Source: a virus
Taxonomy: Duplodnaviria > Caudoviricetes
Reading direction: 5' to 3' (one strand)
Length of the DNA: 64,000 bases
IMG/VR virus record: IMGVR_UViG_3300049846_001081
Within the stretch, counting starts at the first letter, position 1, and each line of letters starts with the position of its first letter. A program made the position numbers and the translations under genes. This document shows positions 8,857 to 63,317 of the stretch, piece after piece. The notes beneath the pieces were generated by a model that worked only from the letters and a program-made list of their open reading frames with translations, was not told the DNA's origin and searched no databases.

Positions 8857-8859
8857 TGA

Positions 8860-9797: not shown

Positions 9798-9800
9798 AAT
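9772..9800 (+). promoter_or_regulatory. Sigma70-type promoter for gp32
   Basis: TTGACA(9772-9777)-17 nt-TAGAAT(9795-9800). Confidence 0.8.
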
Positions 9801-9846
9801 AACAAGGTACACAAAAGCCAAATCCGTACAAATCCGAGGTAATCTA

Positions 9847-44501: not shown

Positions 44502-45644
44502 ATGGCAACTTTTAAAAAGGGCGTATGGGATTTACAGCAGGTAAGGGATCAATATCTTGATGGTGTATGGACTTATGAATCTCCAGAAAGAGCATTATAT
44601 ACCTTTGGTAATAATTCTTCTGGAGAATTAGGACAAAATAATATAACACAATATTCATCACCTGTTCAAATTCCAGGAGTACAATGGATTGCTGTTTCGG
44701 GATCTTACAATTCATCTTCTGGATTGAAATCTGACGGAACTTTATGGACATGGGGATTAAATCCAGTTGGTCAATTAGGACTTAATAATACACAAAGAAT
44801 ATCATCACCAACACAAATTCCGGGAACACAGTGGGCAAAAATTGAGGGAGGAAATGGTGCTATATTTTCTATTAAAACTGATGGAACATTATGGGCATGG
44901 GGAGCAAATTATTCTGGACAATTAGGAATTAACTTATCAACCGGTACTTATCGCTCTTCTCCCGTTCAAATTCCAGGAACACAATGGAGTTTAGTTAGCA
45001 ATAATAGAACACAAACACTTGGTTTAAAAACTGATGGAACATTATGGGCATGGGGTGGATCTGATCAGGGACAATTAGGACAAAACGAAATAGCAAACCA
45101 ATATTCATCGCCAAGACAAATTCCAGGAACACAATGGAATTCTATTTCTAGTGCTTATTTTAGATCATATGCAACCAAAACTGATGGAACATTGTGGGCA
45201 TGGGGTAGAGGTGCATATGGAATGTTGGGTCAAAATGATCAGACACAATATTCATCACCAAGGCAAATTCCAGGAACACAATGGTCTTCAGTTCCATTAT
45301 CAATGTCTTATAACGCATTTGCATTCAAAAATGATGGAACTTTATGGGCTCTTGGTGGATATGGTGAATATGGAAGATTAGGACAGAATAATACAACATC
45401 ACGTTCGTCACCAGTTCAAATTCCGGGAACACAATGGAATTCTTTCTCTGGATCCTATTATGTTTCGGTAGCAACAAAAACTGACGGAACCGCTTGGTCT
45501 TGGGGTCGCAACTATTCTGGATATCTTGGACACGGTGATAGAATAGATAAATCATCCCCAACACAAATACCAGGAACACAATGGACGAGTGTTGGTGTGG
45601 GCGGATATACTGCAGGATTCACATTCCTACTTAAAAACCCATAA
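44502..45644 (+). CDS. RCC1-like 7-bladed beta-propeller protein 1
   Basis: Seven SSPxQIPG(T/V)QW units alternating with KxDGTLWxWG…GQLG. Confidence 0.85.
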   Translation: MATFKKGVWDLQQVRDQYLDGVWTYESPERALYTFGNNSSGELGQNNITQYSSPVQIPGVQWIAVSGSYNSSSGLKSDGTLWTWGLNPVGQLGLNNTQRISSPTQIPGTQWAKIEGGNGAIFSIKTDGTLWAWGANYSGQLGINLSTGTYRSSPVQIPGTQWSLVSNNRTQTLGLKTDGTLWAWGGSDQGQLGQNEIANQYSSPRQIPGTQWNSISSAYFRSYATKTDGTLWAWGRGAYGMLGQNDQTQYSSPRQIPGTQWSSVPLSMSYNAFAFKNDGTLWALGGYGEYGRLGQNNTTSRSSPVQIPGTQWNSFSGSYYVSVATKTDGTAWSWGRNYSGYLGHGDRIDKSSPTQIPGTQWTSVGVGGYTAGFTFLLKNP

Positions 45645-45661
45645 TACATAACTAATAAACT

Positions 45662-45669
45662 TATAAATA
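45662..45669 (+). promoter_or_regulatory. T4 late promoter
   Basis: Exact TATAAATA 22 nt before ATG 45691. Confidence 0.75.
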
Positions 45670-45690
45670 CTTTTAAAGTTTCACATACCG

Positions 45691-46404
45691 ATGAAAATAT
45701 TCAAGTTCTTATCAGTAGATGCAAAAACTGGTATCTCAGTAGAAATTGAAAGACCTCTAGAAGGTCCAACTGCACCTAATTTACCTGGAATCGGTAAAGT
45801 TTTCTATTTTGGTGGTTGGATGTATGCGACAGTAGATGATAGTGCAGTAGCAGAACCAGAAAATTATATTTTTGAAATTACTCAAGAAGAGTTTGATAAC
45901 GTAATTCAGGTTGAATTTGATGCTTCTAAATCAAGAAGAATTGCTGACGCCTATGAAGAGGAAAAAGGAATTCGTTCAGCACTTTTTGGTAAGTATCATG
46001 AGTCTGCCTCAGTCGCTGGAGTTTATAAATATGAGCAAGCAAAAGCAGTTTTAGCAGATCCAACTGCTGATGCACCTGATGTAGAAGCAGAAGCAGACGC
46101 TAGAGGTGTTGCTGTTGCAATCATTGCACAAAGAATTGTTGATAACCATGAAGCATTTAGATTAACCGAAGCAAAACTTGCTGGTCTTCGTGGTAAAATT
46201 GTTGATAGACTAACTGAATTGACTTTTGATGAAACTGATGTACTTGGAAGTTGGGAAGAACTATCAGAAAGACAAGAAGTGATTGGAACTCATGAAGATG
46301 GACCTGCTAATGGAGCAGGTGGAAGACCTGAAGGAAATGAAGTTAAGGTTGGATACTATTCTCCAAGTCTAGGTTTAAGGTGGGAATGGTTGAATAAGGG
46401 TTGA
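45691..46404 (+). CDS. Hypothetical acidic helical protein (possible fibre-assembly chaperone)
   Basis: Lies between propeller genes 1 and 2; YKYEQAKAVL…EADARG segment. Function is a guess. Confidence 0.55.
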   Translation: MKIFKFLSVDAKTGISVEIERPLEGPTAPNLPGIGKVFYFGGWMYATVDDSAVAEPENYIFEITQEEFDNVIQVEFDASKSRRIADAYEEEKGIRSALFGKYHESASVAGVYKYEQAKAVLADPTADAPDVEAEADARGVAVAIIAQRIVDNHEAFRLTEAKLAGLRGKIVDRLTELTFDETDVLGSWEELSERQEVIGTHEDGPANGAGGRPEGNEVKVGYYSPSLGLRWEWLNKG

Positions 46405-46408
46405 TGAT

Positions 46409-47542
46409 ATGATTACATCAACTACGAGTGGTGTTTGGGAACTTGATGAAGTTTATGCGAAGCGTAATGCTGAAAGGTGGAGACCTGGGATTGCTACTTA
46501 TGAATTGTGGGCATGGGGAGTTAATAATAATGGTGAACTAGCTCAAAATAATTTAACATATAGATCATCACCTGTTCAAATTCCAGGAACACAGTGGAAT
46601 GATGTTGCTTTTGGATATAACTCCACACTTGCATCAAAAACTGATGGAACATTATGGGCATGGGGATATAATTATTATGGAGAAGTCGGTGTAAATAATA
46701 GGACTAGATATTCATCACCAGTACAAATTCCAGGAACACAATGGAATAAAACTGTAGCAGGACTATATTATGTTGGTGCGTCAAAAACTGATGGAACTTT
46801 ATGGATGTGGGGGTATAATAATACCGGACAACTTGGACTTGGTGATAAGGTAACATATTCATCACCAGTTCAAGTTCCAGGTACTCAATGGAATAATTTT
46901 GCTGCTGGAATGTATGGATATTATTTAATGGCGGCAACCAAAACTGATGGAACTTTGTGGGTATGGGGTAGAGGAGTTAGTGGTGAAACGGGACAAAATG
47001 ATAGAATAAATCGTTCTTCACCAATACAAGTTCCTGGAACACAATGGTCTTTTATTAATGCTGGCACTGGTATATCTGCAACAAAAACTGATGGAACATT
47101 GTGGACATGGGGAGAAAATAATTATGGTCAATTAGGAATTAATGATGTAATATATCGTTCATCACCAGTTCAAGTTCCAGGAACACAGTGGAATAAAGTT
47201 TTTACTGGATACAACACTTTTGGGATTAAAACTGATGGAACATTATGGGCATGGGGATATAATGCTGCGGGAGAGCTAGGTCAAAATAATTTAACATATA
47301 GATCATCACCTGTTCAAATTCCAGGAACAGAATGGAATATTGTCGTTGCTGGATACAATCACTCTGCTGCAACAAAAACAGATGGAACTTTATGGACATG
47401 GGGAGCAAATGCTTATGGTACGAGTGGACAAAATGATCTTGTAACTCGTTCATCACCAACACAAGTTCCTGGAACGCAATGGAGTACAATAAATGGTGAT
47501 ATATATTCATATTTTGCAACTAAACAAATATTTACATATTAA
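46409..47542 (+). CDS. RCC1-like 7-bladed beta-propeller protein 2
   Basis: Seven PGT(Q/E)W blades. Confidence 0.85.
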   Translation: MITSTTSGVWELDEVYAKRNAERWRPGIATYELWAWGVNNNGELAQNNLTYRSSPVQIPGTQWNDVAFGYNSTLASKTDGTLWAWGYNYYGEVGVNNRTRYSSPVQIPGTQWNKTVAGLYYVGASKTDGTLWMWGYNNTGQLGLGDKVTYSSPVQVPGTQWNNFAAGMYGYYLMAATKTDGTLWVWGRGVSGETGQNDRINRSSPIQVPGTQWSFINAGTGISATKTDGTLWTWGENNYGQLGINDVIYRSSPVQVPGTQWNKVFTGYNTFGIKTDGTLWAWGYNAAGELGQNNLTYRSSPVQIPGTEWNIVVAGYNHSAATKTDGTLWTWGANAYGTSGQNDLVTRSSPTQVPGTQWSTINGDIYSYFATKQIFTY

Positions 47543-47548
47543 CAACAC

Positions 47549-48136
47549 ATGAATCCTTTTGAACTTATTATTATTCAACCGAATATTATACCGCAACATC
47601 ACATTCAAGAACTTCTTCAATTAACCAATCAACCAACATCAAGTGCAACTGTTGGTTCTGGTGAAGAAAAAATAGAAAAAGAAACAAGACATACATTATG
47701 GTATCCAATACCTTATCCCATGTTGCAGAATTTAACATCTGCAACAATGTCTTGCTATCAATCATTTATTCATTCAAAGTATAACTCCACAGTCAAAAAC
47801 ATAGAACCAACGCAGTTTCTAGGATATCCTATCGGCGGTCACTATATAGAACATAATGATAGCGAAAACTTTGAAGGAGGAAAGTGGGTTAGAATTGCTC
47901 CAAGAGACATTTCTATCCTGTATTACCTTAATGATGAATATACTGGTGGAGAACTAGAATTCACAAAATTGGGATTGACGATTAGACCTCAAAGAGGTAT
48001 GATGATAGCATTCCCATCTTATAAAGAGTTTGCTCATAAGGTACATCCAGTCAAATCTGGTGTTCGTTATTCATTGGTCACATGGTTAGAGACAGAGAAG
48101 AAAGTTTATGACACTATACGAAGAGAAAGGATTTGA
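47549..48136 (+). CDS. 2OG-Fe(II) oxygenase (prolyl-4-hydroxylase-like)
   Basis: HND…YLNDEYTGGEL…HKV…GVRYS. Confidence 0.9.
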   Translation: MNPFELIIIQPNIIPQHHIQELLQLTNQPTSSATVGSGEEKIEKETRHTLWYPIPYPMLQNLTSATMSCYQSFIHSKYNSTVKNIEPTQFLGYPIGGHYIEHNDSENFEGGKWVRIAPRDISILYYLNDEYTGGELEFTKLGLTIRPQRGMMIAFPSYKEFAHKVHPVKSGVRYSLVTWLETEKKVYDTIRRERI

Positions 48137-48689
48137 GGTTGTTCCTCATTTTATTCCTCCATTTTTTGCACAATATCTAAGAAATTATTTTGATTTGCTA
48201 AGAGTAAATGATCAGATCCCAAATAAAGGTGATGAACAAGTAGAAAAATCACTTGGGATTTATGGTGACCCAGCATTTGATATGCTAATGTTAATGTCTC
48301 TACCTAAAGTGGAAGAAGTTGTTGGAAAGAAACTTCTTCCAACTTATACCTATGCCAGAATTTATTTCAATGGCGCTGGGTTGCTTCCACATGTGGATCG
48401 TGAAGAATGTGAGCACTCTGTTTCTCTCTGTCTTGGTGGTGAATATAATTCTCTATGGCCATTGTGGTTTAAGAATGAGAACACAGATCCTGAATACGCA
48501 GCGATGAGTGAAGGAGATGCTGTAATCTATAAAGGAAATAAAGTTCATCATTGGCGTGATGAATTTGAAGGAGTAACACAATTTCAAGTATTCATGCATT
48601 ATGTTGAAGCAGAAGGTGAATACAAGAATAAGTTATTTGATACAAGACCCTACATTGGACTGCCTGCTGGAACTAAAACTGAGTATTGA
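48108..48689 (+). CDS. 2OG-Fe(II) oxygenase
   Basis: PTYTYARIY…LLPHVDR…HHWR…FMHYV. Confidence 0.85.
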   Translation: MTLYEEKGFEVVPHFIPPFFAQYLRNYFDLLRVNDQIPNKGDEQVEKSLGIYGDPAFDMLMLMSLPKVEEVVGKKLLPTYTYARIYFNGAGLLPHVDREECEHSVSLCLGGEYNSLWPLWFKNENTDPEYAAMSEGDAVIYKGNKVHHWRDEFEGVTQFQVFMHYVEAEGEYKNKLFDTRPYIGLPAGTKTEY

Positions 48690-49984
48690 AGATGATCCAA
48701 CAACTGATTATTGAACTGAGTGAAAAAGGTGAACCAAAAGCAGCAAAAGAATTAGCAAAGGCATATCTCAAACATTCACCAGACCCTGAGATAATAAATC
48801 TGCTTGGTAAACTGCATCATGATGATAAAGAATTTGATAAAGCATTAGAATGTATGAATGCATTGCAGGAATCTCCTGGTGTAATCATCAACAAAGCAAA
48901 GTGTCTTTATTATCTACGACGAGCACCAGAAGCAGAGAAACTTCTTCTTAAACTTCCAAAAGAAGTTAGAGAAGATCCTTTGACGCAGATTGATCGCTCA
49001 CTTTATACGACTGCACAAGGTAAGTTTGATTTAAGCAAGAGAATTCTTGAACCACTTGCAGATACCATTCCACAGGCTGCATTTAATTATGGATGGTTTT
49101 TGTTGAATGATGACTTCTTAAAGGGTTATGAATACATTCGTGCAGGTGCAAAGTTAAGAGTATGGGGGCATGAATGGTTACTGAAAGAAAAGTATGGAAT
49201 TGATGAAGACCAACGTTGGAATGGAGAAGAAGTAGATACGATTGCATACTATCTTGAAGGTGGTATGGGTGATGAGATGATTTTTATTCGTTATGCAAAT
49301 CATTTTAAAAAATATTGCAAGACTCTTAAGATCTTCTGCACCAAATCCACCAAACCATTGTTTGAAGCATGTGGATATGAAAATGTCTATCTACATGAAG
49401 ATATTGTAAGAACCAAATGGACAAAGTTTGTTCCTGCAATGTCTGCACCATATTTTCTGGGTCTTTCTGGTCCTTGTGAAGGTGTAGAATTTCCTTATCT
49501 ACAAAAGCAAGCAAATCCAGTTCCTGAGATGAATGAAGTCGCAAAGGGACGCAAGAAGATTTGTATTCGTTGGAAAGGAAATCCACAATTTGAACATGAC
49601 CAATTCCGTAGTATTCCAATTGAAAAACTACTTGGATTGGATAAGTTTGGTCAGTTGTTTTCTATTCAAATTGAAGATAGTGACTTACCAAAAAATGCAC
49701 CAGTATGGGATTTAAGTCATCTAATTCATAACTGGAATGATACTTATGATATCTTTGCAGAAAGTGATTTAATTATCACATCTTGTACTGCGACTGCACA
49801 TCTTGCTGGTGCGATGGGCAAGAGACTGATTGTAATGCCTCCTTTGGTTCCTTATATTCCTTGGGCATCTGAGAGTATTAAATGGTATGGTGATAATGTG
49901 ACTGTCTTAAAACAAATGGAATACAACAGTTGGGATAAGACAATTGAAAAACTTTATGAGGTCATGGAAAATGAGATTTCATAG
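48686..49984 (+). CDS. TPR-containing GT-B glycosyltransferase-like protein (GT9-like)
   Basis: N-terminal TPR-like helices; EGGMGDEM, IRWKGNP and DLIITSCTATAHLAGAMGK motifs. Confidence 0.75.
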   Translation: MKMIQQLIIELSEKGEPKAAKELAKAYLKHSPDPEIINLLGKLHHDDKEFDKALECMNALQESPGVIINKAKCLYYLRRAPEAEKLLLKLPKEVREDPLTQIDRSLYTTAQGKFDLSKRILEPLADTIPQAAFNYGWFLLNDDFLKGYEYIRAGAKLRVWGHEWLLKEKYGIDEDQRWNGEEVDTIAYYLEGGMGDEMIFIRYANHFKKYCKTLKIFCTKSTKPLFEACGYENVYLHEDIVRTKWTKFVPAMSAPYFLGLSGPCEGVEFPYLQKQANPVPEMNEVAKGRKKICIRWKGNPQFEHDQFRSIPIEKLLGLDKFGQLFSIQIEDSDLPKNAPVWDLSHLIHNWNDTYDIFAESDLIITSCTATAHLAGAMGKRLIVMPPLVPYIPWASESIKWYGDNVTVLKQMEYNSWDKTIEKLYEVMENEIS

Positions 49985-50666
49985 TTTTTATACAGAAAAT
50001 CTTCCAGAACAAATTATTCATGATCACCAAAAGTGTTGTGAAAAAGTAGGAGTTGAAGTTTATTATCATAAGTATCCTGAGTTTGAAACCTATGATGATG
50101 CATTTTTTGCTCATGGTGATTTCATGACGAAAATGATGCAAGAAGAAACAGATGATGTTGTTTGTTTTCTTGATGTAGATTGTCTACCTACCAATAAGGA
50201 CATTCTTTTCGCTGGTTATCAATGGGCAAAAGAAAATCATTCTTTCGTTGGTAATGCACAAAACATTTCTCACATGCAGTTGAGAAACTATCTTTATTCT
50301 GCACCAGGTCTCACGCTTCTATCTAAAAAAGGTTGGGAAAGAGTTGGAAGTCCAAGCCTCCGTGCGTTTCATCAAAATGACACCTTGATTGATACCATTC
50401 ATATTGTAAGTTTAAGAGCAGACCAAATTGCAATGGATTATCAATTGATGTATCCAGTTGGATTTGATGGTGATGAAGAATCACCATCACGTCTTGGAAG
50501 TTATGGTTATTATGGAAAAGGAACATTATATCCTGCATCATGGCACTACTTTAGAATTAGTGACTTTATTGGAAAAGAAAATCTTCCTGAGTTGTGGACA
50601 AAGAGAGTTGATGATATAATGAATGGTAGGCAAATTATTCCAAGATATACGTCAAGATATTATTGA
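49971..50666 (+). CDS. GT-A glycosyltransferase-like protein
   Basis: CFLDVDCLP DxD motif; paralog of 51270..51932; start placed at ATG 49971. Confidence 0.6.
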   Translation: MRFHSFYTENLPEQIIHDHQKCCEKVGVEVYYHKYPEFETYDDAFFAHGDFMTKMMQEETDDVVCFLDVDCLPTNKDILFAGYQWAKENHSFVGNAQNISHMQLRNYLYSAPGLTLLSKKGWERVGSPSLRAFHQNDTLIDTIHIVSLRADQIAMDYQLMYPVGFDGDEESPSRLGSYGYYGKGTLYPASWHYFRISDFIGKENLPELWTKRVDDIMNGRQIIPRYTSRYY

Positions 50667-50667
50667 G

Positions 50668-51273
50668 ATGAATATTGAAACATATAGTTTATTTCCAACT
50701 AACATTGTAAGAACTGATTTCAAAGGTTTCATTACCCCAGAAGATCATTCTGCAATGATGCAAAGTGTTGATATGTTAATTGAGAATGGCGTTTATACTG
50801 ATAATGAACTGACCCCAAAGTATCAAACATCAGTAATTCTATTTCATGAAGATGCTCCACCAATCTGGCAGAAGTTAAAGCAAACATTTTATCAAGCATG
50901 TCATAATTATTTGCAAGCAACACCAGGATTTACTGGAAATCAGAATGCACTGGAGTTCACTGGTGCAGGTGCATGGTGTTACAAAGGATGGAAATCTTTA
51001 AATGCAAAAGAAACAAATCCATGGCACAATCACAATCCATCATTTCTTTCTGGTGTTTATTATCTAAAAGTTCCTGGTGATTGGTCTGTTGGTGGAACAG
51101 AATTTCATGATCCACGTACAGCACCAGCACACGGAAATCAAAATCAGTGCATTGCACCACAAGAATATACTTGGATTATTTTTCCTGGTTGGTTATCACA
51201 CAAAAGCAATTATGTTGATACTGAAGAACCACGCTATGTAATAGCCGCAAATATGTATGTAAAAGTCAAATGA
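50668..51273 (+). CDS. 2OG-Fe(II) oxygenase (TIGR02466-like)
   Basis: LFPT…WHNHNPSFLSGVYYL…FPGWLSH…RYVIAAN; start placed at ATG 50668. Confidence 0.8.
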   Translation: MNIETYSLFPTNIVRTDFKGFITPEDHSAMMQSVDMLIENGVYTDNELTPKYQTSVILFHEDAPPIWQKLKQTFYQACHNYLQATPGFTGNQNALEFTGAGAWCYKGWKSLNAKETNPWHNHNPSFLSGVYYLKVPGDWSVGGTEFHDPRTAPAHGNQNQCIAPQEYTWIIFPGWLSHKSNYVDTEEPRYVIAANMYVKVK

Positions 51274-51932
51274 AAAGAGCAATTTTTACTTTCTATAATC
51301 TATCAATTGATAAAGAGGTTATACGACTTCAACATGAAGTGATTCAGAAGTTAAACAAAACTGCTGACTTTCTTCCTTTATGTTCTCAAACGCATGGTGA
51401 GGAAGTTATTCATCCAGATGGTGTTGAATATGGATTTCATCAACTGTTTCAAGAGTATGATACAGTTTTGCTTTTAGATGTTGACTGTATTCCCTTAAAT
51501 CAATATGCACTTGAGTATACCTTTGAACAAGCAGAAAGTGGCAAGTTGATTGGTAATGCACAGATTGGTGCTCATCTACAAAATCCAGAACATCTATATG
51601 TTGCTCCATCAGCATTTTGTCTTACACGAAAAATGTTTGAGGACTTTGGAAGACTTACATTTAAACCCGATCATTATCATGCAGATACCTGTGGATTCTA
51701 TACGCTTGAAGCAGAAAAGCGTGGAGTAGAAGTAGAATTTTATATGCCCACACATTTCCAACGACCACCAAGAAATGCTGTATGGGATTTAGGTCAAGGT
51801 CGTGGTCAGTATGGTATTGGTACTACATATTCAAATCATCTTGGTGTGAATATGTTCTATCATCTATTTGAAAGTCGTCTAAATGTATATAATTGTCTGT
51901 TCTACGATAAATGTGAGGAGTTACTGAAATGA
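51270..51932 (+). CDS. GT-A glycosyltransferase-like protein
   Basis: LLLDVDCIP DxD motif and IGNAQ…YVAPS. Confidence 0.6.
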   Translation: MKRAIFTFYNLSIDKEVIRLQHEVIQKLNKTADFLPLCSQTHGEEVIHPDGVEYGFHQLFQEYDTVLLLDVDCIPLNQYALEYTFEQAESGKLIGNAQIGAHLQNPEHLYVAPSAFCLTRKMFEDFGRLTFKPDHYHADTCGFYTLEAEKRGVEVEFYMPTHFQRPPRNAVWDLGQGRGQYGIGTTYSNHLGVNMFYHLFESRLNVYNCLFYDKCEELLK

Positions 51933-52528
51933 ATACTTATCTTGATGCATGTGTAGAAAATCCAAGAACATTAGACCTTGGAAATGATATGTATGCCATT
52001 GAATTCTGGAAACCAGAATTTTGTAAAGAGTTAATCAACATTGCAGAAAATATTGAAGGAGGGTTTCAGAGTCAACCAGGAGACCCTGTATACGGTCAGG
52101 AGATACGTATCAGTAGGATTAGTGATTTATTCTATTTAAATTACTGTGAGCACTGGAAACGTGTTGTATCGCCGTTTCTTGATGAGAAGATTGGCATGTC
52201 TAGTGAACAGTGGTTTGTTGGGTGGAAAGTTCCTTTTATTATCAAATACACAATGGATGGTCAGAGAGGTCTTCGTCCTCATGCTGATGATAGTTTATAT
52301 ACGGGCACAATTAAACTAAATGATGAATACACTGGTGGTGAACTGATTTATCCACGTCAAAAGTTCAGTAATAAAGATGTCCCAGTTGGTACAATGATTC
52401 TTGCTCCATCAATGATTACTCATGTTCATTATAGTAGTGAACTTGAAAGTGGAACGAAGTATTCTTTTGTATCTTGGACGAAACTAAATAGGAAAGATAG
52501 CGGTATAAACTACTCAGAAGTACAATGA
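51929..52528 (+). CDS. 2OG-Fe(II) oxygenase (lysyl-hydroxylase-like)
   Basis: FIIKY…LRPHADDS…KLNDEYTGGEL…THVH. Confidence 0.8.
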   Translation: MNTYLDACVENPRTLDLGNDMYAIEFWKPEFCKELINIAENIEGGFQSQPGDPVYGQEIRISRISDLFYLNYCEHWKRVVSPFLDEKIGMSSEQWFVGWKVPFIIKYTMDGQRGLRPHADDSLYTGTIKLNDEYTGGELIYPRQKFSNKDVPVGTMILAPSMITHVHYSSELESGTKYSFVSWTKLNRKDSGINYSEVQ

Positions 52529-53679: not shown

Positions 53680-53707
53680 TAAATAACAACAAACAGAATT
53701 TTACATC

Positions 53708-55724: not shown

Positions 55725-56580
55725 TATTCATATCGTTACAAGAACATGCGACCGCAGTTCAATTCAAAGTAATCGCATTGTGAATAAAACAGAATGTACA
55801 CTTCGGTGCGTTTACTCTGTCTTAAAGAATATGCAGAACTTGGCGAATGTGCATTATCATATTATTGATGATATGTCCAGTGACTACTTAAGAAAAAGTA
55901 TGGTAGATCTGTGCTTATTATACAAACAGAGTGTAAGTTTTAATTTTCTTGGACCCAGGGAAACTGATGGACAAAATCCACATCAGGCTTCTAGGCATTC
56001 AGTAAAAGTCGCATATGATTACATCTACGCATTACCTGATGATGACTTTGTTTATATTGTAGATGATGACCATTTGCATCAAGACAATGCAATTTCTACA
56101 ATGATTTCTGCATGGGAATATCTTCAGCAAGTCACTCCAGAAGAAACTGATGTTGGTATCTTCCCTCAATGTTTTGTTCAGTTGTTTCCTTACCTAGGAA
56201 ATAACTATGCTCATACTTATGTTCGTCCATGCTACGTCATTCCAACACCGGTTGGTTTTTATCGCACAACATGGTATACTCATGAAACGTTCATGATAAA
56301 AGCCAAGATCTTTAAAAAATACAAAAACATTTTTGATACATTGGTTACGACAGGAAGTGACCCTGCAATTTGGGAAGGAAATACAATTTCTAAAGTATGG
56401 GAACGTGATGACTTCATGATGTTCATGCCTCTTCACCCTTCCGTTATGCACATGTCTGTCTCACAAGACAAACCCTTTTATTGGTCTAAAGAAGACGTAA
56501 TTCATCTTTGGGAAAATAACAAAACACCCTTTTCTTTACCCGAAAATTCATATCTTAATTTAAATGAGGTAATCCTATAA
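55705..56580 (+). CDS. GT-A glycosyltransferase-like protein
   Basis: HIIDDMS and VYIVDDDHLH motifs. Confidence 0.6.
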   Translation: MIKNMSDIHIVTRTCDRSSIQSNRIVNKTECTLRCVYSVLKNMQNLANVHYHIIDDMSSDYLRKSMVDLCLLYKQSVSFNFLGPRETDGQNPHQASRHSVKVAYDYIYALPDDDFVYIVDDDHLHQDNAISTMISAWEYLQQVTPEETDVGIFPQCFVQLFPYLGNNYAHTYVRPCYVIPTPVGFYRTTWYTHETFMIKAKIFKKYKNIFDTLVTTGSDPAIWEGNTISKVWERDDFMMFMPLHPSVMHMSVSQDKPFYWSKEDVIHLWENNKTPFSLPENSYLNLNEVIL

Positions 56581-57305
56581 TGATTGTAGAAAATCCAGTT
56601 ACGATTGCAAATGATGTTCCCATCATTGACCCATATGAAGGATTTGATTTCACACAATATCCTTTTGATGTAACAGCATTCTGGGATTATTTTGGTGGCA
56701 GAACACCAACAAACAATCCAGATGATAACTCTCCAGTTTTTGAGAAACTGATTAGTGAAGTTAAACCACAACTGATTTTAGAAGTAGGAAGTTATAAAGG
56801 TAAGAGTGCTATTCATATGGCAAATCTTACTAAGAAGTATCAAATTCTTGCAAAGGTTGTTTGTATTGATACGTTTCTTGGATCTGCAGAGCATTATTTC
56901 TGCAATGAGGACCTTAAACGTTTAAATGGATATCCAATGCTTTACTATCAGTTTCTTGCAAATGTGATGCACACAAACAATCAAGATGTGATTGTTCCTA
57001 TTCCTTTGGATAGTTTAAGTGAGTATCGTATTCTAAAAGAAAATGGTACAAAAGCAGATATGATTTTTATTGATGCTGGGCACTTCTATGAAAGTGTTGC
57101 ACTTGATATCAAACTTTACTGGGAATTGCTGAAACCAGGTGGTGTAATGCTTGGTGATGATTATTGTGAAAAGACTTGGCCAGATGTAATTCGTGCAGTT
57201 CATGAATTCTTTCCACATGATCAAGTATTCACTGAAGATAATAAGTGGTGGGTTTATAAAAAAGTAGAACCTGTTAATGTTCCAAATAAATCTTGGAGTT
57301 GGTGA
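56580..57305 (+). CDS. Class I SAM-dependent methyltransferase (Methyltransf_24-like)
   Basis: LEVGSYKGKS, CIDTF, MIFIDAGH and LKPGGVMLGDDY motifs. Confidence 0.9.
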   Translation: MIVENPVTIANDVPIIDPYEGFDFTQYPFDVTAFWDYFGGRTPTNNPDDNSPVFEKLISEVKPQLILEVGSYKGKSAIHMANLTKKYQILAKVVCIDTFLGSAEHYFCNEDLKRLNGYPMLYYQFLANVMHTNNQDVIVPIPLDSLSEYRILKENGTKADMIFIDAGHFYESVALDIKLYWELLKPGGVMLGDDYCEKTWPDVIRAVHEFFPHDQVFTEDNKWWVYKKVEPVNVPNKSWSW

Positions 57306-57901
57306 TGTTTAATCATATTCATTTAAAAAATCCTGGTGTAACCACAAGTGTTCTTCCACCACAAATCTTTCATGAAGTTATGAAAGAGATAAAAGAAATT
57401 GAGCATAATGATCATGGTTATCTCAAGATGAATAATCAACTTGCGGGTCAAATTTCAAGAGAATATCAATTACAAAAATCTCAGGAATTTATTAATCCAT
57501 TTTTAAAACAAATGGCTACAGAATATGCAAACCATTTTGATTATTATCCGAATCATTATTTTGATGTAGAAAGTCTATGGGTAAACTTTCAAAGAAAGAC
57601 TGAATATAATCCTATTCATAATCATGATGGGTTACTGAGTTTTGTATGTTGGATGCAAATTCCTTATCATCTTCAAGATGAGTATAGTGTTCAACACAGT
57701 CAGAACTCCAACATGAAAGCAGCATCCACATTTCAATTTGTTTATTCCAGTATTCTTGGAAATATTATCAATGAAAAACTTGAAGTAGATCAAGATTGGG
57801 TAGGAAGAATTGTAATGTTCCCCAGTAAACTTCTTCATACTGTTTATCCATTTTTTACAAGTGATGAGTATCGCATTTCAGTAGCAGGAAATATTTCATG
57901 A
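57293..57901 (+). CDS. 2OG-Fe(II) oxygenase (TIGR02466-like)
   Basis: WVNFQ…NPIHNHDG…FPSKLLHTVYPF…RISVAGN. Confidence 0.82.
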   Translation: MELVMFNHIHLKNPGVTTSVLPPQIFHEVMKEIKEIEHNDHGYLKMNNQLAGQISREYQLQKSQEFINPFLKQMATEYANHFDYYPNHYFDVESLWVNFQRKTEYNPIHNHDGLLSFVCWMQIPYHLQDEYSVQHSQNSNMKAASTFQFVYSSILGNIINEKLEVDQDWVGRIVMFPSKLLHTVYPFFTSDEYRISVAGNIS

Positions 57902-58524
57902 AAAAGATTATTCACATTGTAAACATTGGGGATTTCTTTCCAGAACTTTTTGCAATGACTTTTCCTACCGTGCAAGCATATGCACAAAGGAATGGATATG
58001 TGATTAATCTAATTACAGAAAGAAAGTTTCCCGATTTTCATATCAACTATGAAAAGATGCAAGTATGGGAAGATGGTAAAGACGCTGATGTAAATCTTCT
58101 GGTGGATGCTGATGTATTGATTCACCCTGGATTTCCTGATGTAGTTAACATTGTTCCTCCACATCATATTGGATTTAATGATAACTATCATGCGAGTACA
58201 AAGTTTCATACTAATCATTATTTTCTTCGTGATGGTCGTGATGTAGGCATTGCATCAAACTTTGTGGTATCTTATCGGTCTACGCATGACCTATGGAAAC
58301 CACTGACGATTACACCAGCACAAGGACGACGCATTACATTTGTGCGTGAAGGAGATATTGATGAATATTGTATTTCTCAAAACATGGCAAAGTATGGGTT
58401 AAGATATACAGGTATTACTTGGGAACCTTGGCAACGTGAGTTTCTTATACATACAGGAACAGGTGATAGAGCACTTGCACTGAAAATGGCTAATGAAGCA
58501 TTGAACAAATGGAAAAATCTATAG
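57898..58524 (+). CDS. Nucleotide-diphospho-sugar transferase-like protein
   Basis: YAQRNGY…YEKMQV…LLVDADVL motif pattern. Confidence 0.6.
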   Translation: MKKIIHIVNIGDFFPELFAMTFPTVQAYAQRNGYVINLITERKFPDFHINYEKMQVWEDGKDADVNLLVDADVLIHPGFPDVVNIVPPHHIGFNDNYHASTKFHTNHYFLRDGRDVGIASNFVVSYRSTHDLWKPLTITPAQGRRITFVREGDIDEYCISQNMAKYGLRYTGITWEPWQREFLIHTGTGDRALALKMANEALNKWKNL

Positions 58525-59609
58525 ATATTGGCTTTTTTGCTACATTAGCAAAAAGAATCGCTGTTAAAAATTATTCAAGACAATCTGTAGAAGCAGGAAT
58601 AGAAGTTCTTGAATTTGCACGACAGTTGTTTCCTTCACCAGAAGATCAAAAAAGATTTAATTGGGAAGTCGCACATCTACAAACACAAAACGCTGACTTT
58701 AAGGAACTGCAAAGAATTTTTCATGCGGAAAGAATGAATTCATCTCCGTGGGGATCTTACTGTATTCAGTATAAAAAACCAATTTGGGATGGAATTCCTG
58801 AGCAAGGAAAAACAATTCTAATGGTCGGTGAAGGTGGTTTTGGTGATGAGATTACAGCATCAAAGTTTTCTTATAATTTTAAGCAAAAAGGAATGAAAGT
58901 AATTTTTGCAACAAATTATAAGTCACTGAAGTCATCTTTAGAAAGAATTCCAACCATTGATAATGTTATAATGGTTGATGAAATTCAAAACTTTGACGAT
59001 TATGATTATTGGATTCCTTCCGTAGAATCACCATTAGCATTGAATATAGATCAAGAAGATGTACCAACTCACCAGTATCTTTTTGCGCCAGAACAATATC
59101 TAACAAAGTGGAAGTATATCATACCAGAAAGTAATAAACTTAGAGTGGGAATACGTTGGTCTGGAAATAAAGATTATGGAAATCCAGCAAATATTGCAGT
59201 TCCATATGAATATTTTAATGAATTAACTTCAATTCCAAATGTTGAAATATATTCTCTACAAAGAGATGATGGAGTTGAAGACATTCCAACAACATCAAAA
59301 ATTATTCCATTGCATAATCAGTTGGAAACATGGGAAGATACTTTCGCTGCGGTTTCTCAATTGGACTTGGTGATATCTGGTTCCACATGCATACCAATCA
59401 TTTCCGCAGGTCTAAATAAAGAAACTTGGGCAGTTCTTCATCTGTGGAGATTTACTCAATGGATGGGAACGGAAACGAAACCTTTCTTATTTGGTGATAA
59501 TGTTACATGTTATAGGCAAAGTAAAGTTGATAGTTGGAATGAACCTTTTGAAAGATTGAGAGAAGACTTATATGCAAAAGCAACACAGAAAAAACTTGAT
59601 CGTAGTTGA
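58509..59609 (+). CDS. GT-B glycosyltransferase-like protein (GT9-like), paralog of 48686..49984
   Basis: EGGFGDEI, VGIRWSGN and LDLVIS motifs. Confidence 0.7.
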   Translation: MEKSIDIGFFATLAKRIAVKNYSRQSVEAGIEVLEFARQLFPSPEDQKRFNWEVAHLQTQNADFKELQRIFHAERMNSSPWGSYCIQYKKPIWDGIPEQGKTILMVGEGGFGDEITASKFSYNFKQKGMKVIFATNYKSLKSSLERIPTIDNVIMVDEIQNFDDYDYWIPSVESPLALNIDQEDVPTHQYLFAPEQYLTKWKYIIPESNKLRVGIRWSGNKDYGNPANIAVPYEYFNELTSIPNVEIYSLQRDDGVEDIPTTSKIIPLHNQLETWEDTFAAVSQLDLVISGSTCIPIISAGLNKETWAVLHLWRFTQWMGTETKPFLFGDNVTCYRQSKVDSWNEPFERLREDLYAKATQKKLDRS

Positions 59610-60189
59610 TAACTTTTACGGATATCCAGATCAAGTAAGAGATTATGCATTAAGTGTTGAATATGAACCTGGTGGAAAAAGAAATTGGCCAGGGCGTGAT
59701 AGTATTGATGAACATGGAAAGGAAGAACTGACTGAGATGATCAGTCAAGTTGTAGGACAAAAACTTACAACAAAGTCTTGCAATAAGTGTTCTTATTTTA
59801 GAAGAACCAAAGTTGGTGAGTACGGGACACAGGATATTCACTTTGACCCAAATCCAGGATTAGTCTGGGCAGGTATCATTTACTTAACACCAACATTTCA
59901 TCCAACTGGCGGAACAAAGTTTTGGAAGCATCGTGAATTTGGATGGGAATTTGCACCAAATCAAGAACAGGCTGCGAAGTGTGGTATACATTCCCATCAA
60001 GATATGGTAAACTTCTTTAATACCGATGGAAAAGATCGTGATAAGTGGATAGAAACAGATAATATTTCTTTTAAGTATAATCGTTTAGTAATGTTCAACC
60101 CATTCATGTTTCATTCAAATGGTGAGTGGTTTGGAACTGATGACCAATCAGCAAGATTAGTTCAACTTCTATTTTTCCATGCAACATAA
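59572..60189 (+). CDS. DUF6445-like / 2OG-Fe(II)-fold protein
   Basis: IVVDNFY…IHFD…IIYLTP…GGTKF…YNRLVMF…FHS…RLVQLLF. Confidence 0.7.
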   Translation: MQKQHRKNLIVVDNFYGYPDQVRDYALSVEYEPGGKRNWPGRDSIDEHGKEELTEMISQVVGQKLTTKSCNKCSYFRRTKVGEYGTQDIHFDPNPGLVWAGIIYLTPTFHPTGGTKFWKHREFGWEFAPNQEQAAKCGIHSHQDMVNFFNTDGKDRDKWIETDNISFKYNRLVMFNPFMFHSNGEWFGTDDQSARLVQLLFFHAT

Positions 60190-60811
60190 ATTAGCAATCT
60201 TTTATCATCTCTATCAGACAGACACCGCACAATTCATTTACCAACAACAGATGCATCGGTTGTATACATCTGGTTTGGTTGATGCCGTTGAATTTATTCA
60301 TATTGGTATTAGTGGAGAACATGAGTTGTTCTCTAAACCAAGAAATGCGATCGTTCAACACAATGAATTCACCGGTGATGAAGGTGGAACGATGGTTTCT
60401 ATGATGGAATTCATCATGAAAAACCCCGATTATAAAGTATTATTCTTTCATGGAAAGGGTGCAAGTAAGAATGATATGTATCATCCACAACTTCAAGCAT
60501 GGCGTTTGTTTATGGAATACTATGTAATTGATAAGTGGAAGCAATGTTTATTCCATCTGGATGAATACAATTGTGTTGGTGTAAAAGTTAGACAAGAACC
60601 ACTTCCACACTTCAGTGGTAATTTCTGGTGGGCAAATTCAGATTATCTACAAACACTTAATCATGACTTTTTGTTTACTCGTGGATTTGAAAGAAAAGTA
60701 GACCGCGAATTGTGGATTGGAACTGGTGATTTCAAACCAAAGGATTTGCATCCCATTGATATCAATCTAAGTATGCACGAAACAATCTATACAGAAGACA
60801 ATTATCTATGA
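60179..60811 (+). CDS. Putative glycosyltransferase-associated protein
   Basis: VLFFHGKG…WR…HFSGNFWWA…ELWI motif, commonly found in phage glycosylation clusters as recalled. Confidence 0.5.
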   Translation: MQHKLAIFYHLYQTDTAQFIYQQQMHRLYTSGLVDAVEFIHIGISGEHELFSKPRNAIVQHNEFTGDEGGTMVSMMEFIMKNPDYKVLFFHGKGASKNDMYHPQLQAWRLFMEYYVIDKWKQCLFHLDEYNCVGVKVRQEPLPHFSGNFWWANSDYLQTLNHDFLFTRGFERKVDRELWIGTGDFKPKDLHPIDINLSMHETIYTEDNYL

Positions 60812-61581
60812 TTAATGTTCTTGACTATTCCAGATTGAATTCAGAATTTATCAATGCAAAGCCTTTTCATCATGTTGTGATGGATAATTTCTTTGATGAA
60901 GAAACTGCATTAGCAATTAGTCATGAATTTCCAGATTATCATTCAGATGTTTGGTATGTTTACAACAATCCATTAGAAAAGAAAAGAGCATGTAATTCTT
61001 GGAATACATTTTCCAGGAATACTTATTCCATATTTTGTTATTTAAATTCACCAGAATTCATATCAAAGTTAAAGAAGATTACTGGAATTAAAAAACTTTA
61101 TCCAGACATTGGATTGCACGGTGGTGGTATGCACATTCATGGTCAAGGAGATAAGTTAAATGTGCATCTTGATTATTCCATTCATCCAAAACTTAAACTT
61201 CAAAGAAAGTTAAATCTTATCATTTACCTTGGGGAAAACTGGAACCCAGAATGGGGTGGGCAATTAGAATTTTGGTCGCCAGATAAAAAACAATGTGTGA
61301 CTTCAATTGATACATTGTTTAATCGTGCAGTCATCTTTGATACAACACAAAATTCTTATCACGGATTGCCAAGTCCTTTGAAATGCCCAGACAATTACTA
61401 TCGTAAAAGTATTGCAGTTTATTATCTTACGGAACCAGAAAGAAATTGCCCAACACATTCAAAGGCAATTTATATTCCAACAGAAGAGCAGAAAAACAAT
61501 CCAGAAATTCAGGAGATGATTCGGAAAAGAGCAAGTATATTAACAGTCAATCAAGTATACCAATCTCTACCTAATAAATAG
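60808..61581 (+). CDS. 2OG-Fe(II) oxygenase
   Basis: PFHHVVMDNF…LHGGG…VHLD…GGQLEFW…SYHG…RKSIAVYY. Confidence 0.9.
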   Translation: MINVLDYSRLNSEFINAKPFHHVVMDNFFDEETALAISHEFPDYHSDVWYVYNNPLEKKRACNSWNTFSRNTYSIFCYLNSPEFISKLKKITGIKKLYPDIGLHGGGMHIHGQGDKLNVHLDYSIHPKLKLQRKLNLIIYLGENWNPEWGGQLEFWSPDKKQCVTSIDTLFNRAVIFDTTQNSYHGLPSPLKCPDNYYRKSIAVYYLTEPERNCPTHSKAIYIPTEEQKNNPEIQEMIRKRASILTVNQVYQSLPNK

Positions 61582-61610
61582 AAAAAGCAACTAGACGTAT
61601 AATAGTCATA

Positions 61611-63317
61611 ATGTCTCAGACAAAAGTTCAACTAGTAGCACCAGTAGGAATTGTAACTGCATCTGGAGTTAATGTCAGTGGAACGATTACTGCTACTAGT
61701 TACTCGGGAAGTGGAGCAAACTTAACTGGAGTTGGTGTAGGTACAACTGCAAGCGTTAATACATCAGGTATTATAACGGCAGTAAGTTTTTTTGGTAATG
61801 GTGCAAATTTAAGTGGTGTTGGACTTGGATCAACTGCAAGTGCATCAACCACTGGTATCGTCACCGCATCAAAGTTTGTAGGAAGTGGTATAGGTTTAAC
61901 AAATATTGGTGGACCAATTGGTGCAATCATTTATAAACCAGCAGTTGGATCATCCAATGTTGGAGTAACCACAAATATTGAAATTACATTTAGTAAACCA
62001 ATTCAAGCGGGCGTAGGAACAATTACATTAAGAACTGGAAGTGCGTCAGGTACAATTGTTGAAAGTTTTGATGTCACATCCAGCAATCGTCTTACAATCA
62101 GCACTGCAAAACTTACAATTGACCCAACCAGTGATTTGAACGAAAGCACAACATACTATGTTGTATTACCATCAGGAGTGCTTAAGGATACTTATGTTGG
62201 TATTTCAAGTAATGTTTTAATTGATACCTATAGTTTTACAACACAAGCATTTAATTATGAACTGTTTATGTGGGGATATGGCAATTATGGACAATTAGGA
62301 CAAAATGATAGAACACCACGTTCATCACCAACACAAATACCAGGAACACAGTGGTCTTTTGTTGCGAATAGTTATTTACAAACAAATGCAATCAAAACTG
62401 ATGGTACATTATGGGTATGGGGATATGGCGCTTATGGCGCATTAGCACAAAATGATCAGGTAAATCGTTCATCACCAGTTCAACTTCCAGGAACGCAGTG
62501 GGAACAAATTACAGGTGGATATTTGCATAGCTTGGCAAAGAAATCCGATGGAACTTTATGGGCATGGGGTATTGGTCTATATGGACAACTTGGACAAAAT
62601 AATACAACATATTATTCATCACCAGTACAAATTCCAGGAACACAGTGGAATCAATTGTTTTCTAATGGATATGCAGCAAACTTTAGCATTGCAAGCAAAA
62701 CTGATGGTACATTATGGGCATGGGGATATGGCGCTACTGGAAGATTGGGATTAAATAATACCATAGACCGTTCATCACCAGTACAACTCCCAGGAACACA
62801 ATGGAATACTACAAACAAATATTCAATATCTATTGGAAATGGTCATGTTCTTGCATTAAAAACTGATGGAACATTATGGTCATGGGGTTATAGTTCTTAT
62901 GGTGTTTTGGGTTTAAATAATCAAGTACAGTACTCATCGCCAATTCAAATTCCAGGAACACAATGGAGTGAGTGTAATGCAGGCGGTTATGGTAGCATGG
63001 CAATCAAATCTGATGGAACATTATGGGTGTGGGGAAGAAATGATTATGGTCAAGTGGGCATTAATGATGTAATACCACGTTCATCACCAATTCAAATCCC
63101 AGGAACACAGTGGACTAAACCAAATTCCGGAAATATCAGTTCAAGATCTCTAAAAACTGATGGAACTTTATGGATGTGGGGATATAATAATTTCGGAACA
63201 TTAGGACAAAATGACTTAACACATTATTCATCACCAAGACAAATTCCAGGAACACAATGGTATTTTGAATCAGGAGAAGTTTATGAATCATTTGCAATCA
63301 AACAAATCATACCATAA
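61611..63317 (+). CDS. RCC1-like propeller protein 4 with N-terminal fibre repeats and an Ig-like domain
   Basis: Three GI(V/I)TAxxFxGxG repeats; ITFSKPI…LTIDP…TTYYVVLPSG (Big_5-like); seven PGTQW blades; late promoter at 61574-61580. Confidence 0.85.
   Translation: MSQTKVQLVAPVGIVTASGVNVSGTITATSYSGSGANLTGVGVGTTASVNTSGIITAVSFFGNGANLSGVGLGSTASASTTGIVTASKFVGSGIGLTNIGGPIGAIIYKPAVGSSNVGVTTNIEITFSKPIQAGVGTITLRTGSASGTIVESFDVTSSNRLTISTAKLTIDPTSDLNESTTYYVVLPSGVLKDTYVGISSNVLIDTYSFTTQAFNYELFMWGYGNYGQLGQNDRTPRSSPTQIPGTQWSFVANSYLQTNAIKTDGTLWVWGYGAYGALAQNDQVNRSSPVQLPGTQWEQITGGYLHSLAKKSDGTLWAWGIGLYGQLGQNNTTYYSSPVQIPGTQWNQLFSNGYAANFSIASKTDGTLWAWGYGATGRLGLNNTIDRSSPVQLPGTQWNTTNKYSISIGNGHVLALKTDGTLWSWGYSSYGVLGLNNQVQYSSPIQIPGTQWSECNAGGYGSMAIKSDGTLWVWGRNDYGQVGINDVIPRSSPIQIPGTQWTKPNSGNISSRSLKTDGTLWMWGYNNFGTLGQNDLTHYSSPRQIPGTQWYFESGEVYESFAIKQIIP

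Follow-up and report, generated by a model that had tools for sequence, protein, structure and literature searches.

Why would a bacteriophage encode four β-propeller proteins and 18 soluble enzymes side by side among its tail-fibre genes? This question is raised by a 64,000-nucleotide stretch of viral DNA (IMG/VR record IMGVR_UViG_3300049846_001081; hereafter the window), in which positions 44502-63317 hold an island of four RCC1 propeller genes, a conserved gene that we term X, and 18 soluble enzyme genes in two packed runs. A prior interpretation made from the nucleotide sequence without database searches (the sequence-only reading) proposed that the island encodes a pathway that hydroxylates, glycosylates, methylates and sulfates virion proteins. 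Our analysis ties the enzymes to the propeller and fibre genes, whereas a general pairing of hydroxylation with glycosylation did not hold up. We propose with moderate confidence that the island transferases act in the cytoplasm, before assembly, to decorate the propeller adhesins or fibre proteins encoded nearby.

Organization of the island

Genes are named here by their first position, and all window genes and motifs discussed lie on the + strand. According to the map of open reading frames (ORFs), propeller gene 44502 is followed by X (45691), propeller gene 46409, seven enzyme genes, propeller gene 52525, eleven enzyme genes, and propeller gene 61611. Junctions overlap in 16 of 19 cases within the two runs, in agreement with the earlier remark that many genes are joined by overlapping start and stop codons. 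Intergenic gaps occur before X (46 nt, containing TATAAATA), after 52525 (28 nt, containing ATAAATA), and before 61611 (29 nt, containing ATAAATA). The island was also correctly placed between tail-fibre genes. Its upstream flank encodes a tail-fibre-type protein (41708..43621) that carries a Peptidase_S74 C-terminal chaperone domain (E = 2e-15) and matches many tail-fibre PHROGs, and fibre-Ig-propeller genes follow on the downstream side.

Pfam RCC1 matches bear out all four propeller genes, with PF00415 scores of 120-177 bits against a cut-off of 21.7 and six to seven matching stretches in each protein. The first is a seven-blade propeller of 380 amino acids (44502..45644; PF25390 1.7e-56, PF00415 6e-48), followed by propellers of 377 (46409..47542; PF25390 3e-70) and 384 amino acids (52525..53679; PF00415 5e-35). 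The fourth protein (61611..63317; 568 amino acids) joins a fibre-like N-terminus, an immunoglobulin (Ig)-like domain (Big_5, 5e-13) and an RCC1 propeller (PF00415 1.3e-52). Mutual identity among the four propellers is approximately 52%. Their blades consist of two constant blocks around variable loops; in 44502, every blade contains SSPxQIPGTQW and KTDGTLWxWG blocks. Some metagenome contigs (44600-63300; runs X4 and X6) fuse different propellers at these constant blocks, joining 44762 to 62859 and 47112 to 62697. Such joins point either to propeller genes recombining among related strains or to chimeric assembly over the repeated blocks.

T4-type late promoters had been placed at 45662, 53679 and 61574. 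Late-promoter-like ATAAATA motifs are indeed located at 45663..45669 (here TATAAATA; 22 nt upstream of gene 45691), at 53679..53685 (23 nt upstream of gene 53708), and at 61574..61580 (31 nt upstream of gene 61611). The exact string TATAAATA is found only at 45662 and, within X, at 46024, and thus at only the first of the three sites. The shorter motif is under-represented in the window (15 copies versus 23 expected), and eight of the 15 copies sit 16-36 nt 5′ of an ORF of at least 100 amino acids, where 3% would be expected by position (P = 3e-9). Because of this strong positioning before long ORFs, ATAAATA behaves as a cyanophage late promoter. Contigs from a freshwater metatranscriptome match the propeller and enzyme genes exactly, and one bridges 52525 and 53708. 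These contigs are weak evidence, because DNA carry-over is possible and they carry no timing.

No island protein contains a hydrophobic segment of membrane-spanning strength, and Pfam and PHROG annotation identified no flippase, polymerase or priming transferase among the island genes.

Conserved gene order and contrasting selection

A scan of viral contigs queried with the sulfotransferase recovered 13 IMG/VR contigs in which the island recurs with its gene order intact, and Marine virus AG-345-E08, a single-cell genome, has this arrangement as well; amino-acid identities are 50-95%. Gene order was compared in six lineages. Twelve of the enzyme genes occur in every one of them, 57293 is absent from a single lineage, and genes 49971, 51929, 55705, 56580 and 58509 are variable. 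In one lineage the positions of 57293 and 55705 are swapped. Random gene order in relatives, which would have spoken against a shared pathway, was therefore not encountered; the order is collinear.

Ratios of nonsynonymous to synonymous substitution (dN/dS) were calculated against two orthologous islands and are approximate, because dS is near 1 or above. All 15 enzyme genes tested gave values of 0.02-0.18, with the sulfotransferase (53708) at 0.02-0.06. By comparison, three propellers gave 0.43-0.68 (0.43-0.62 for 44502). Judged by these values, the enzymes are strongly constrained while the propellers diversify, which is the behaviour that would be expected of receptor-binding parts. The idea that the region is 'stuffer DNA' was rejected on the same grounds, since no enzyme gene in the comparison fell outside a dN/dS of 0.02-0.18.

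Linkage of propellers and enzymes in other phages

The enzyme encoded immediately after the first oxygenase-type genes, 48686, combines N-terminal tetratricopeptide repeats (TPR) with a GT-B-like domain. This TPR-transferase occurs in only three of 50,697 phage records, namely S-SRM01, BUCT-ZZ01 and AG-345-E08. All three are RCC1-bearing cyanophages, and the distance from the TPR-transferase to an RCC1 gene is 1-3 kb in each. Among these same records, the transferase 51270 is found in only two of the three RCC1-bearing cyanophages and 57898 in only one. A scan of viral contigs with the TPR-transferase alignment yielded 69 loci in 19 clusters. An RCC1 gene lies within 8 kb in 16 of the 19 clusters, a sulfotransferase is present in 12, and a gene resembling 55705 is present in 10. 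In contrast, none of 19 control loci carrying only a distant sulfotransferase has an RCC1 gene within that distance (Fisher 9e-8).

The cultured freshwater phages S-SRM01 and BUCT-ZZ01 exhibit a reduced version of the same layout. In S-SRM01, whose RCC1 genes are gp335, gp337 and gp344, a fibre gene is followed by genes for an RCC1 protein, a small protein, a second RCC1 protein, the TPR protein, a PF13759 oxygenase, and homologues of 49971 and 60179. A further RCC1 gene then precedes a sulfotransferase, a GT2-Methyltransf_24 fusion and an epimerase. By its composition, the island resembles a widespread RCC1/TPR-transferase/sulfotransferase cassette to which generic cyanophage oxygenases and further transferases have been added. 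With 18 enzymes and its oxygenase expansion, the window version is the largest among the cassettes compared here. In the literature searched, we found no account of an RCC1-enzyme island in cyanophages or of a phage decorating its own adhesins in such a way. RCC1 genes and the cassette go unmentioned both by Sullivan et al. 2010 (PMC3037559) and in the S-SRM01 paper.

Collinearity, purifying selection, late motifs, the recurrence of RCC1 genes in 16 of 19 clusters, and the lack of membrane segments together argue for a functional tie between enzymes and propellers rather than a random cluster.

Protein X (45691..46404), encoded between the first two propellers, has no Pfam match and a dN/dS of 0.25-0.29, and it holds the same position in all collinear relatives. 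The equivalent position is occupied by a DUF4376 protein in S-SRM01 and by a tail-assembly-chaperone-like protein in BUCT-ZZ01. A comparison of the X family with S-SRM01 gp336 by hhalign gave a probability below 2%, and homology to the positional equivalents was not found.

Transferases, sulfotransferase and methyltransferase

Eight island genes had been described as glycosyltransferase-like. Five of these stand, comprising one GT25 member and four proteins of the GT-A fold, whereas 55705 reaches GT2 only below threshold and 48686 and 58509 fall short of Pfam GT9. The latter two (48686..49984 and 58509..59609) are paralogues in their C-terminal domain, over which they are 27% identical. The TPR N-terminus is clear in 48686 (TPR_19, 1.3e-7, residues 13-62), and 58509 has a helical N-terminal domain. 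In the ESM Atlas, the model of 58509 aligns with TPR-glycosyltransferase clusters at a template-modelling (TM) score of 0.80-0.84, and a search by features gives 0.93-0.97 to clusters where PF01075 is present in 10-94% of the members. The description of both proteins as GT9-like is drawn from these Atlas features and structures. Accordingly, 48686 has the architecture of an N-terminal TPR region, recognized by sequence, followed by a GT-B-like domain, as suggested by the Atlas. A PDB search with 48686 as single sequence returned chance matches only.

A direct sequence match identifies the GT25 glycosyltransferase (54538..55197; PF01755 6e-13, 49.5 bits versus a cut-off of 24). The protein encoded at 51270..51932 is predicted to be a GT-A-fold transferase, with an AlphaFold2 (AF2) model at pLDDT 94.9 that matches GT-A enzymes in the PDB by Foldseek (E = 4e-6) and an invariant D70xD72 motif. 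Its paralogue at 49971..50666 is 33% identical to it and 53% identical to S-SRM01 gp340, and carries a DVD motif. The weak GT2-like protein at 55705..56580 has a sub-threshold PF00535 match (E = 1.2e-3) and a DDD motif. A GT-A transferase at 57898..58524 is related to GT8. It has no direct Pfam match itself, and the link is indirect: its family profile matches the PF01501 (GT8) regions of the fusion proteins P0364, P0414, P0363 and P0397 with independent E-values of approximately 1e-13 to 7e-8. Members of this family are also fused to Methyltransf_24/TylF and GT9 domains; the TPR-transferase profile did not match the GT9 domains of P0363 and P0397. In two metagenomic relatives of 57898 (P0483 and P0509), the protein is split by an intein that bears a LAGLIDADG homing endonuclease, as seen from matches to Hint, Intein_splicing and LAGLIDADG_3.

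The eighth protein (60179..60811) belongs to DUF8361 (PF27674 in homologues) and is predicted to adopt the GT-A, or nucleotide-diphospho-sugar transferase, fold (AF2 pLDDT 88). GT-A enzymes rank first among the structural neighbours of the model (VIA Z 12.8-10), led by heparosan synthase 2 at Z 12.8; the protein has no DxD motif, and nucleotidyltransferases score nearly as high (Z ~11). Searches of the PDB with profiles of the TPR-transferase, 51270, 57898, 60179, 48108 and DUF6445 families returned nothing meaningful, and hhalign comparisons between several island enzyme families gave probabilities below 2%.

Two further assignments made from the sequence proved sound. Gene 53708 (53708..54541) encodes a sulfotransferase of the type that uses 3′-phosphoadenosine-5′-phosphosulfate (PAPS), with matches to PF13469 (1.1e-10) and PF00685 (1.7e-10) of 42.6 and 41.2 bits, above cut-offs of 27 and 22. 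The variable gene 56580 (56580..57305) encodes an S-adenosylmethionine (SAM) methyltransferase of the sugar O-methyltransferase type (Methyltransf_24, 8.7e-17; RMNT_CmcI, 7e-9).

The identities of these transferases also bring in the main rival to propeller decoration, which is that the enzymes remodel host glycans late in infection. Lipopolysaccharide (LPS) or O-antigen, exopolysaccharide, or surface glycoproteins would be altered so that the structure bound by the propellers is masked, sparing progeny from loss on debris or on infected cells. Gene linkage would then reflect a shared ligand rather than enzyme and substrate. GT25, GT8, GT9 and GT2 are classical families of LPS and lipooligosaccharide synthesis, 'LPS gene' clusters exist in large cyanomyoviruses (Sullivan et al. 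2010, PMC3037559), and co-localisation of receptor-binding with receptor-modifying genes would yield the same association with RCC1. However, the described clusters lie near hli/phoH and tRNA genes rather than in the fibre module (PMC3037559), and tblastn searches of P-SSM2, S-SM2 and S-SSM7 gave no match for 48686/58509, 51270, 57898 or 60179, nor for the oxygenase-type gene 60808. In addition, the island proteins are all soluble and are not accompanied by flippase, polymerase, priming transferase or export functions; the TPR domain and the prolyl-hydroxylase-type enzymes point to protein substrates; and late timing better suits the building of virions than exclusion. Remodelling of host glycans therefore fits less well, and we consider it unlikely.

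Oxygenase-type genes

The sequence-only reading counted eight 2-oxoglutarate (2OG)-Fe(II)-type oxygenases, of which seven are retained, one of them as probable. Three are of prolyl-hydroxylase type. The first, a prolyl-4-hydroxylase (P4H)-type enzyme (47549..48136), matches PF13640 at 2e-15 (58 bits versus a cut-off of 27). Its family profile finds solved P4Hs in the PDB at 1.5e-9 (5c5t) to 2e-7, including B. anthracis P4H and C-P4H alpha-2, and residues H102, D104, H166 and R173 are invariant in the family. The second (60808..61581) matches PF13640 at 5e-17 (63 bits versus 27), and its PDB matches are OGFOD1 (2.4e-5), a P4H, and hypoxia-inducible factor (HIF) prolyl hydroxylase. The similarities of these two suggest that their substrates are proteins. 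The third, from the variable gene 51929 (51929..52528), is a 2OG-Fe(II) oxygenase (phrog_61, 8e-17) that is related to 47549 by BLAST (3.5e-8).

Three oxygenase-like proteins match PF13759 (50668..51273, 1.3e-11; 55188..55724, 1.4e-10; 57293..57901, 2.8e-11). They share an invariant HxH...H...R pattern, and their nearest solved structures are uncharacterised. Gene 59572 (59572..60189) encodes a DUF6445 protein (PF20043, 1.3e-13) with invariant H90xD92...H181, probably an oxygenase of the double-stranded beta-helix type. This domain is tied to sugar transfer by fusions in two viral contigs, where single proteins consist of Methyltransf_24, GT2 and DUF6445 (781 amino acids; L021:12768-15113) or of TPR and DUF6445 (636 amino acids; L020:8547-10457). 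The eighth candidate, 48108 (48108..48689), could not be confirmed. It belongs to a cyanophage 'ferrochelatase-domain' family (phrog_2954, 2e-48) and has an invariant HxD...H pattern, with no Pfam or PDB match and no detectable relation to any oxygenase, including by hhalign.

Oxygenases next to glycosyltransferases could also serve to hypermodify DNA, with the oxygenases hydroxylating a base that the transferases then glycosylate, as in base J or phage 5-hydroxymethylcytosine (5hmC)-glycan systems. To our knowledge, however, no DNA-modification system includes a sulfotransferase or TPR domains. The protein 47549 does have a weak Tet_JBP match (PF12851, E = 1.8e-3), but this amounts to 18 bits against a cut-off of 34.9, and PF13640 and solved P4Hs match far better. 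Phage systems that join TET enzymes to glycosyltransferases are reported (bioRxiv 10.1101/2023.12.21.572611), and this phage encodes a Mom-family protein, yet the island genes lie in a late fibre module and are linked to RCC1 rather than to replication genes. DNA hypermodification by the island is thus highly improbable. The Mom-family gene itself (32617-33240; PF25680, E = 2e-22) lies within the structural module, with its own ATAAATA motif region upstream. Since it is encoded, the phage may carry a Mu-Mom-type adenine modification.

An analogy to collagen hydroxylysine glycans, also raised at the outset, was dropped. A system of the collagen type, composed of PLOD and GT25 enzymes, was rejected because the 47549 profile reaches the lysyl hydroxylase LH3 only at E = 0.06-0.1, compared to 1.5e-9 for P4H. 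Moreover, no large ORF of the window contains a Gly-X-Y run with proline that might serve as a collagen-like substrate.

Proposed function and its alternatives

Several lines of evidence lead us to prefer decoration of the propellers or fibres. Late-type promoters, position in the fibre module, repeated gene linkage, soluble enzymes and the lack of lipid-carrier machinery all favour it, as do the prolyl-hydroxylase-type enzymes with their likely protein substrates. Precedents, described in the next section, are the TPR plus GT-B architecture of FlmG, the adhesin-transferase pattern of TibC/TibA, and the presence of RCC1 proteins in the W70 virion.

From these data we infer a substrate, a reaction order and every chemical detail of the following scheme. 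The RCC1 propeller adhesins of the tail-fibre module would be made at the same, late time as the soluble enzymes encoded with them. The two TPR plus GT-B-like proteins would bind the protein substrate and attach the first sugars. The GT25, GT8-like, GT2-like and other GT-A-fold proteins would then lengthen the glycan, and the sulfotransferase and sugar-type methyltransferase would cap it. The oxygenases would represent a lineage-specific addition, in which the prolyl-hydroxylase types may hydroxylate the same proteins and the DUF6445 protein might act together with a transferase and a methyltransferase. Presumably, the enzymes would read the framework that stays constant among blades, and diversification for host recognition would fall to the variable loops. 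A complex prediction for 48686 and propeller 46409 gave a score of 0.00, which counts neither for nor against binding.

A more specific version holds that the oxygenases hydroxylate the constant blade framework and that O-glycans are then built there, methylated and sulfated. We regard this version as doubtful. If true, the phage would have a chemically coated, fast-evolving receptor-binding head, produced by a multi-step pathway similar to ones found in eukaryotes and giant viruses. We know of no earlier bacteriophage case of hydroxylation-dependent, sulfated protein glycosylation.

A number of results weigh against our proposal. The TPR-transferase family reaches Pfam GT9 (PF01075) at best with E = 0.21, in two of 12 members, and its profile finds no GT9 or TibC chain in the PDB at E ≤ 10. 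Because GT25, GT8 and GT9 also include LPS enzymes, the name of a glycosyltransferase family does not tell whether the acceptor is a protein or is lipid-linked. DUF8361 is not restricted to propeller cassettes: it occurs in a 490-amino-acid protein of the uncultured 735-kb megaphage LR756501 (L038, 19272-20744), within a glycan cluster with methyltransferase-like genes, and no RCC1 gene lies within 20 kb of that locus. The Ser-Ser-Pro blade motif was considered as a specific modification site and rejected, because every phage propeller examined retains it, in cassettes rich in oxygenases as well as in those that lack them. This motif is apparently general in bacterial RCC1-like repeats and is thus no marker of modification. 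The remaining points concern the oxygenases. Genes 47549 and 48108 belong to generic cyanophage families that, in phage S-T4, are not located beside transferases. Oxygenases and transferases, said to alternate for the most part, do so at 11 of 16 junctions versus 8.4 expected (P = 0.14, or P = 0.07 without 48108), a pattern not beyond chance that leaves the general hydroxylate-then-glycosylate pairing unsupported. Nor was the anticipated co-variation of oxygenase and propeller copy numbers seen, with three propellers and one oxygenase in S-SRM01 and six propellers and no detected oxygenase in another viral contig (L018).

The results on oxygenases raise the possibility that the island is mixed. 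The cassette of transferases, sulfotransferase and methyltransferase would serve the propellers, and most of the oxygenases would be unrelated passengers in a hyperplastic region, generic enzymes with a role of their own, such as 2OG/nitrogen signalling or repair. By tblastn, the 47549 family matches 338 phage records and the 48108 family 156, and nearly all carriers are ordinary cyanomyoviruses without RCC1 genes or island transferases. In S-T4 (L039, record 8636-11277), a 2OG oxygenase, a 'ferrochelatase'-domain protein and another 2OG oxygenase are encoded beside a helicase and endonuclease V (denV), and the window pair 47549-48108 looks like the oxygenase-'ferrochelatase' part of this apparently conserved unit. 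Distant cassettes lack oxygenases: the P4H and PF13759 types are confined to the four clusters nearest the window. DUF6445 additionally occurs in two distant clusters. Roles in 2OG metabolism and repair have been proposed for such cyanophage enzymes (Sullivan et al. 2010, PMC3037559), and the lack of significant alternation fits as well. On the other hand, six oxygenase-type genes hold their exact positions between transferases in six of six lineages and are under strong purifying selection. Ordinary cyanophages seldom or never carry 60808 and the PF13759 copies, the same holds for 60808, 50668, 51270, 57898 and 60179 in isolated cyanophages, and DUF6445 is fused to GT2 and methyltransferase domains in the related contig noted above. 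Given these constraints, a mixed island is in our judgement rather improbable.

Comparison with known systems

In several respects, decoration of the propellers would resemble bacterial systems that glycosylate adhesins. The autotransporter heptosyltransferases of the TibC/TibA and Aah/AIDA-I pairs act on adhesins in the cytoplasm, prior to export or assembly (PMC4358343), and, as in the island, a repeat-built adhesin is encoded beside a soluble enzyme of GT-B type (predicted for the island, GT9-related in those pairs). What sets the island apart from TibC/TibA is its candidate substrate, an RCC1 propeller from the fibre module of a phage, and a transferase that has an N-terminal TPR region and no sequence match to TibC or other heptosyltransferases. 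The island also adds sulfate, methyl, GT-A and oxygenase enzymes. FlmG, the flagellin O-glycosyltransferase of Caulobacter, uses its TPR region to bind the substrate and its GT-B domain to transfer sugar (PMC7591256). The two-part design is also predicted for 48686; this comparison concerns architecture.

RCC1 proteins are known from the virion of coliphage W70, whose proteome includes three tandem members of approximately 40 kDa (PMC11370258). The short RCC1 propellers of the island may likewise be virion parts, but no modifying enzymes are reported beside the RCC1 genes of this myovirus, and its RCC1 proteins are not close relatives. Sullivan et al. 2010 describe T4-like cyanophages that have several 2OG-Fe(II) oxygenases along with 'ferrochelatase-domain' proteins and clusters of LPS genes (PMC3037559). 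The genes 47549 and 48108 fall into those generic families, but the LPS clusters lie near hli03/phoH and tRNA genes and the island in the fibre module.

With the collagen system of PLOD/LH3 and COLGALT1, the island shares a GT25 enzyme and, in a relative contig, a fusion of glycosyltransferase and oxygenase-like domains. The likeness between the GT-A proteins of the island and the glycosyltransferase domains of LH3 and COLGALT1 is at the level of a generic GT-A fold (TM ~0.5). In contrast to that system, the window has no Gly-X-Y substrate, and its oxygenases match prolyl, not lysyl, hydroxylases.

Virus-encoded glycosylation of virions includes the capsid glycans of chlorovirus PBCV-1, the fibrils of mimivirus (R699, L230), and capsid and tail proteins of mycobacteriophages. 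In these systems the virus supplies cytoplasmic transferases of its own to decorate its particle, joined in PBCV-1 by a sugar methyltransferase. PBCV-1 also encodes a prolyl 4-hydroxylase. The solved structure of this hydroxylase is the best PDB match of 47549. Unlike these systems, the island has RCC1 propellers and a sulfotransferase, and we know of no report of virus-encoded virion glycosylation in a T4-like phage.

If the enzymes do decorate the propellers, the tail-fibre adhesins of abundant aquatic phages would bear glycans that the virus itself makes and that carry sulfate and methyl groups. Views of how phages recognize hosts, how stable their particles are, and how they are recognized in grazing or by immune systems would then change. 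Many phage genes labelled 'hypothetical' or 'LPS-like' would also gain a function; for some of the families concerned, metagenomic members number in the hundreds to thousands. The core pair of RCC1 and TPR-transferase is widespread in viral contigs, and the cultured carriers S-SRM01 and BUCT-ZZ01 make the question of decoration directly testable. In addition, the island is a source of small, soluble candidate transferases and oxygenases.

Source phage and additional features of the window

The window derives from a divergent T4-like cyanomyovirus with adjacent psbA and psbD genes, gp32, thyX, and T4-type baseplate, hub and tail genes. The baseplate tail-tube cap shares only 42-47% identity with its counterparts in the nearest isolates, SynMITS9220M01, S-SM2 and Bellamy. 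A near-identity DNA search of phage records identified no relative and a single 45-base match. The phage contig, as seen via protein search, spans at least 225,595 bp. Near-identical DNA to positions 52525-61581 is found mainly in metagenome runs labelled as freshwater, with a few labelled as marine, from approximately 15 studies. The phage is widespread, with freshwater picocyanobacteria as its likely host. Its collinear relatives include a Pacific Ocean single-cell virus.

Two other large genes were noted. A protein of 1416 amino acids (24737-28987) is encoded next to the baseplate hub gene and contains a PA14 carbohydrate-binding-type domain (E = 1e-15), suggesting that it may be a further adhesin. 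A structural protein of 821 amino acids (39208-41673; phrog_24848) is 20.6% glycine, in glycine-rich runs that are not collagen-like, and its gene explains why GC content and GC skew climb locally at 40-42 kb.

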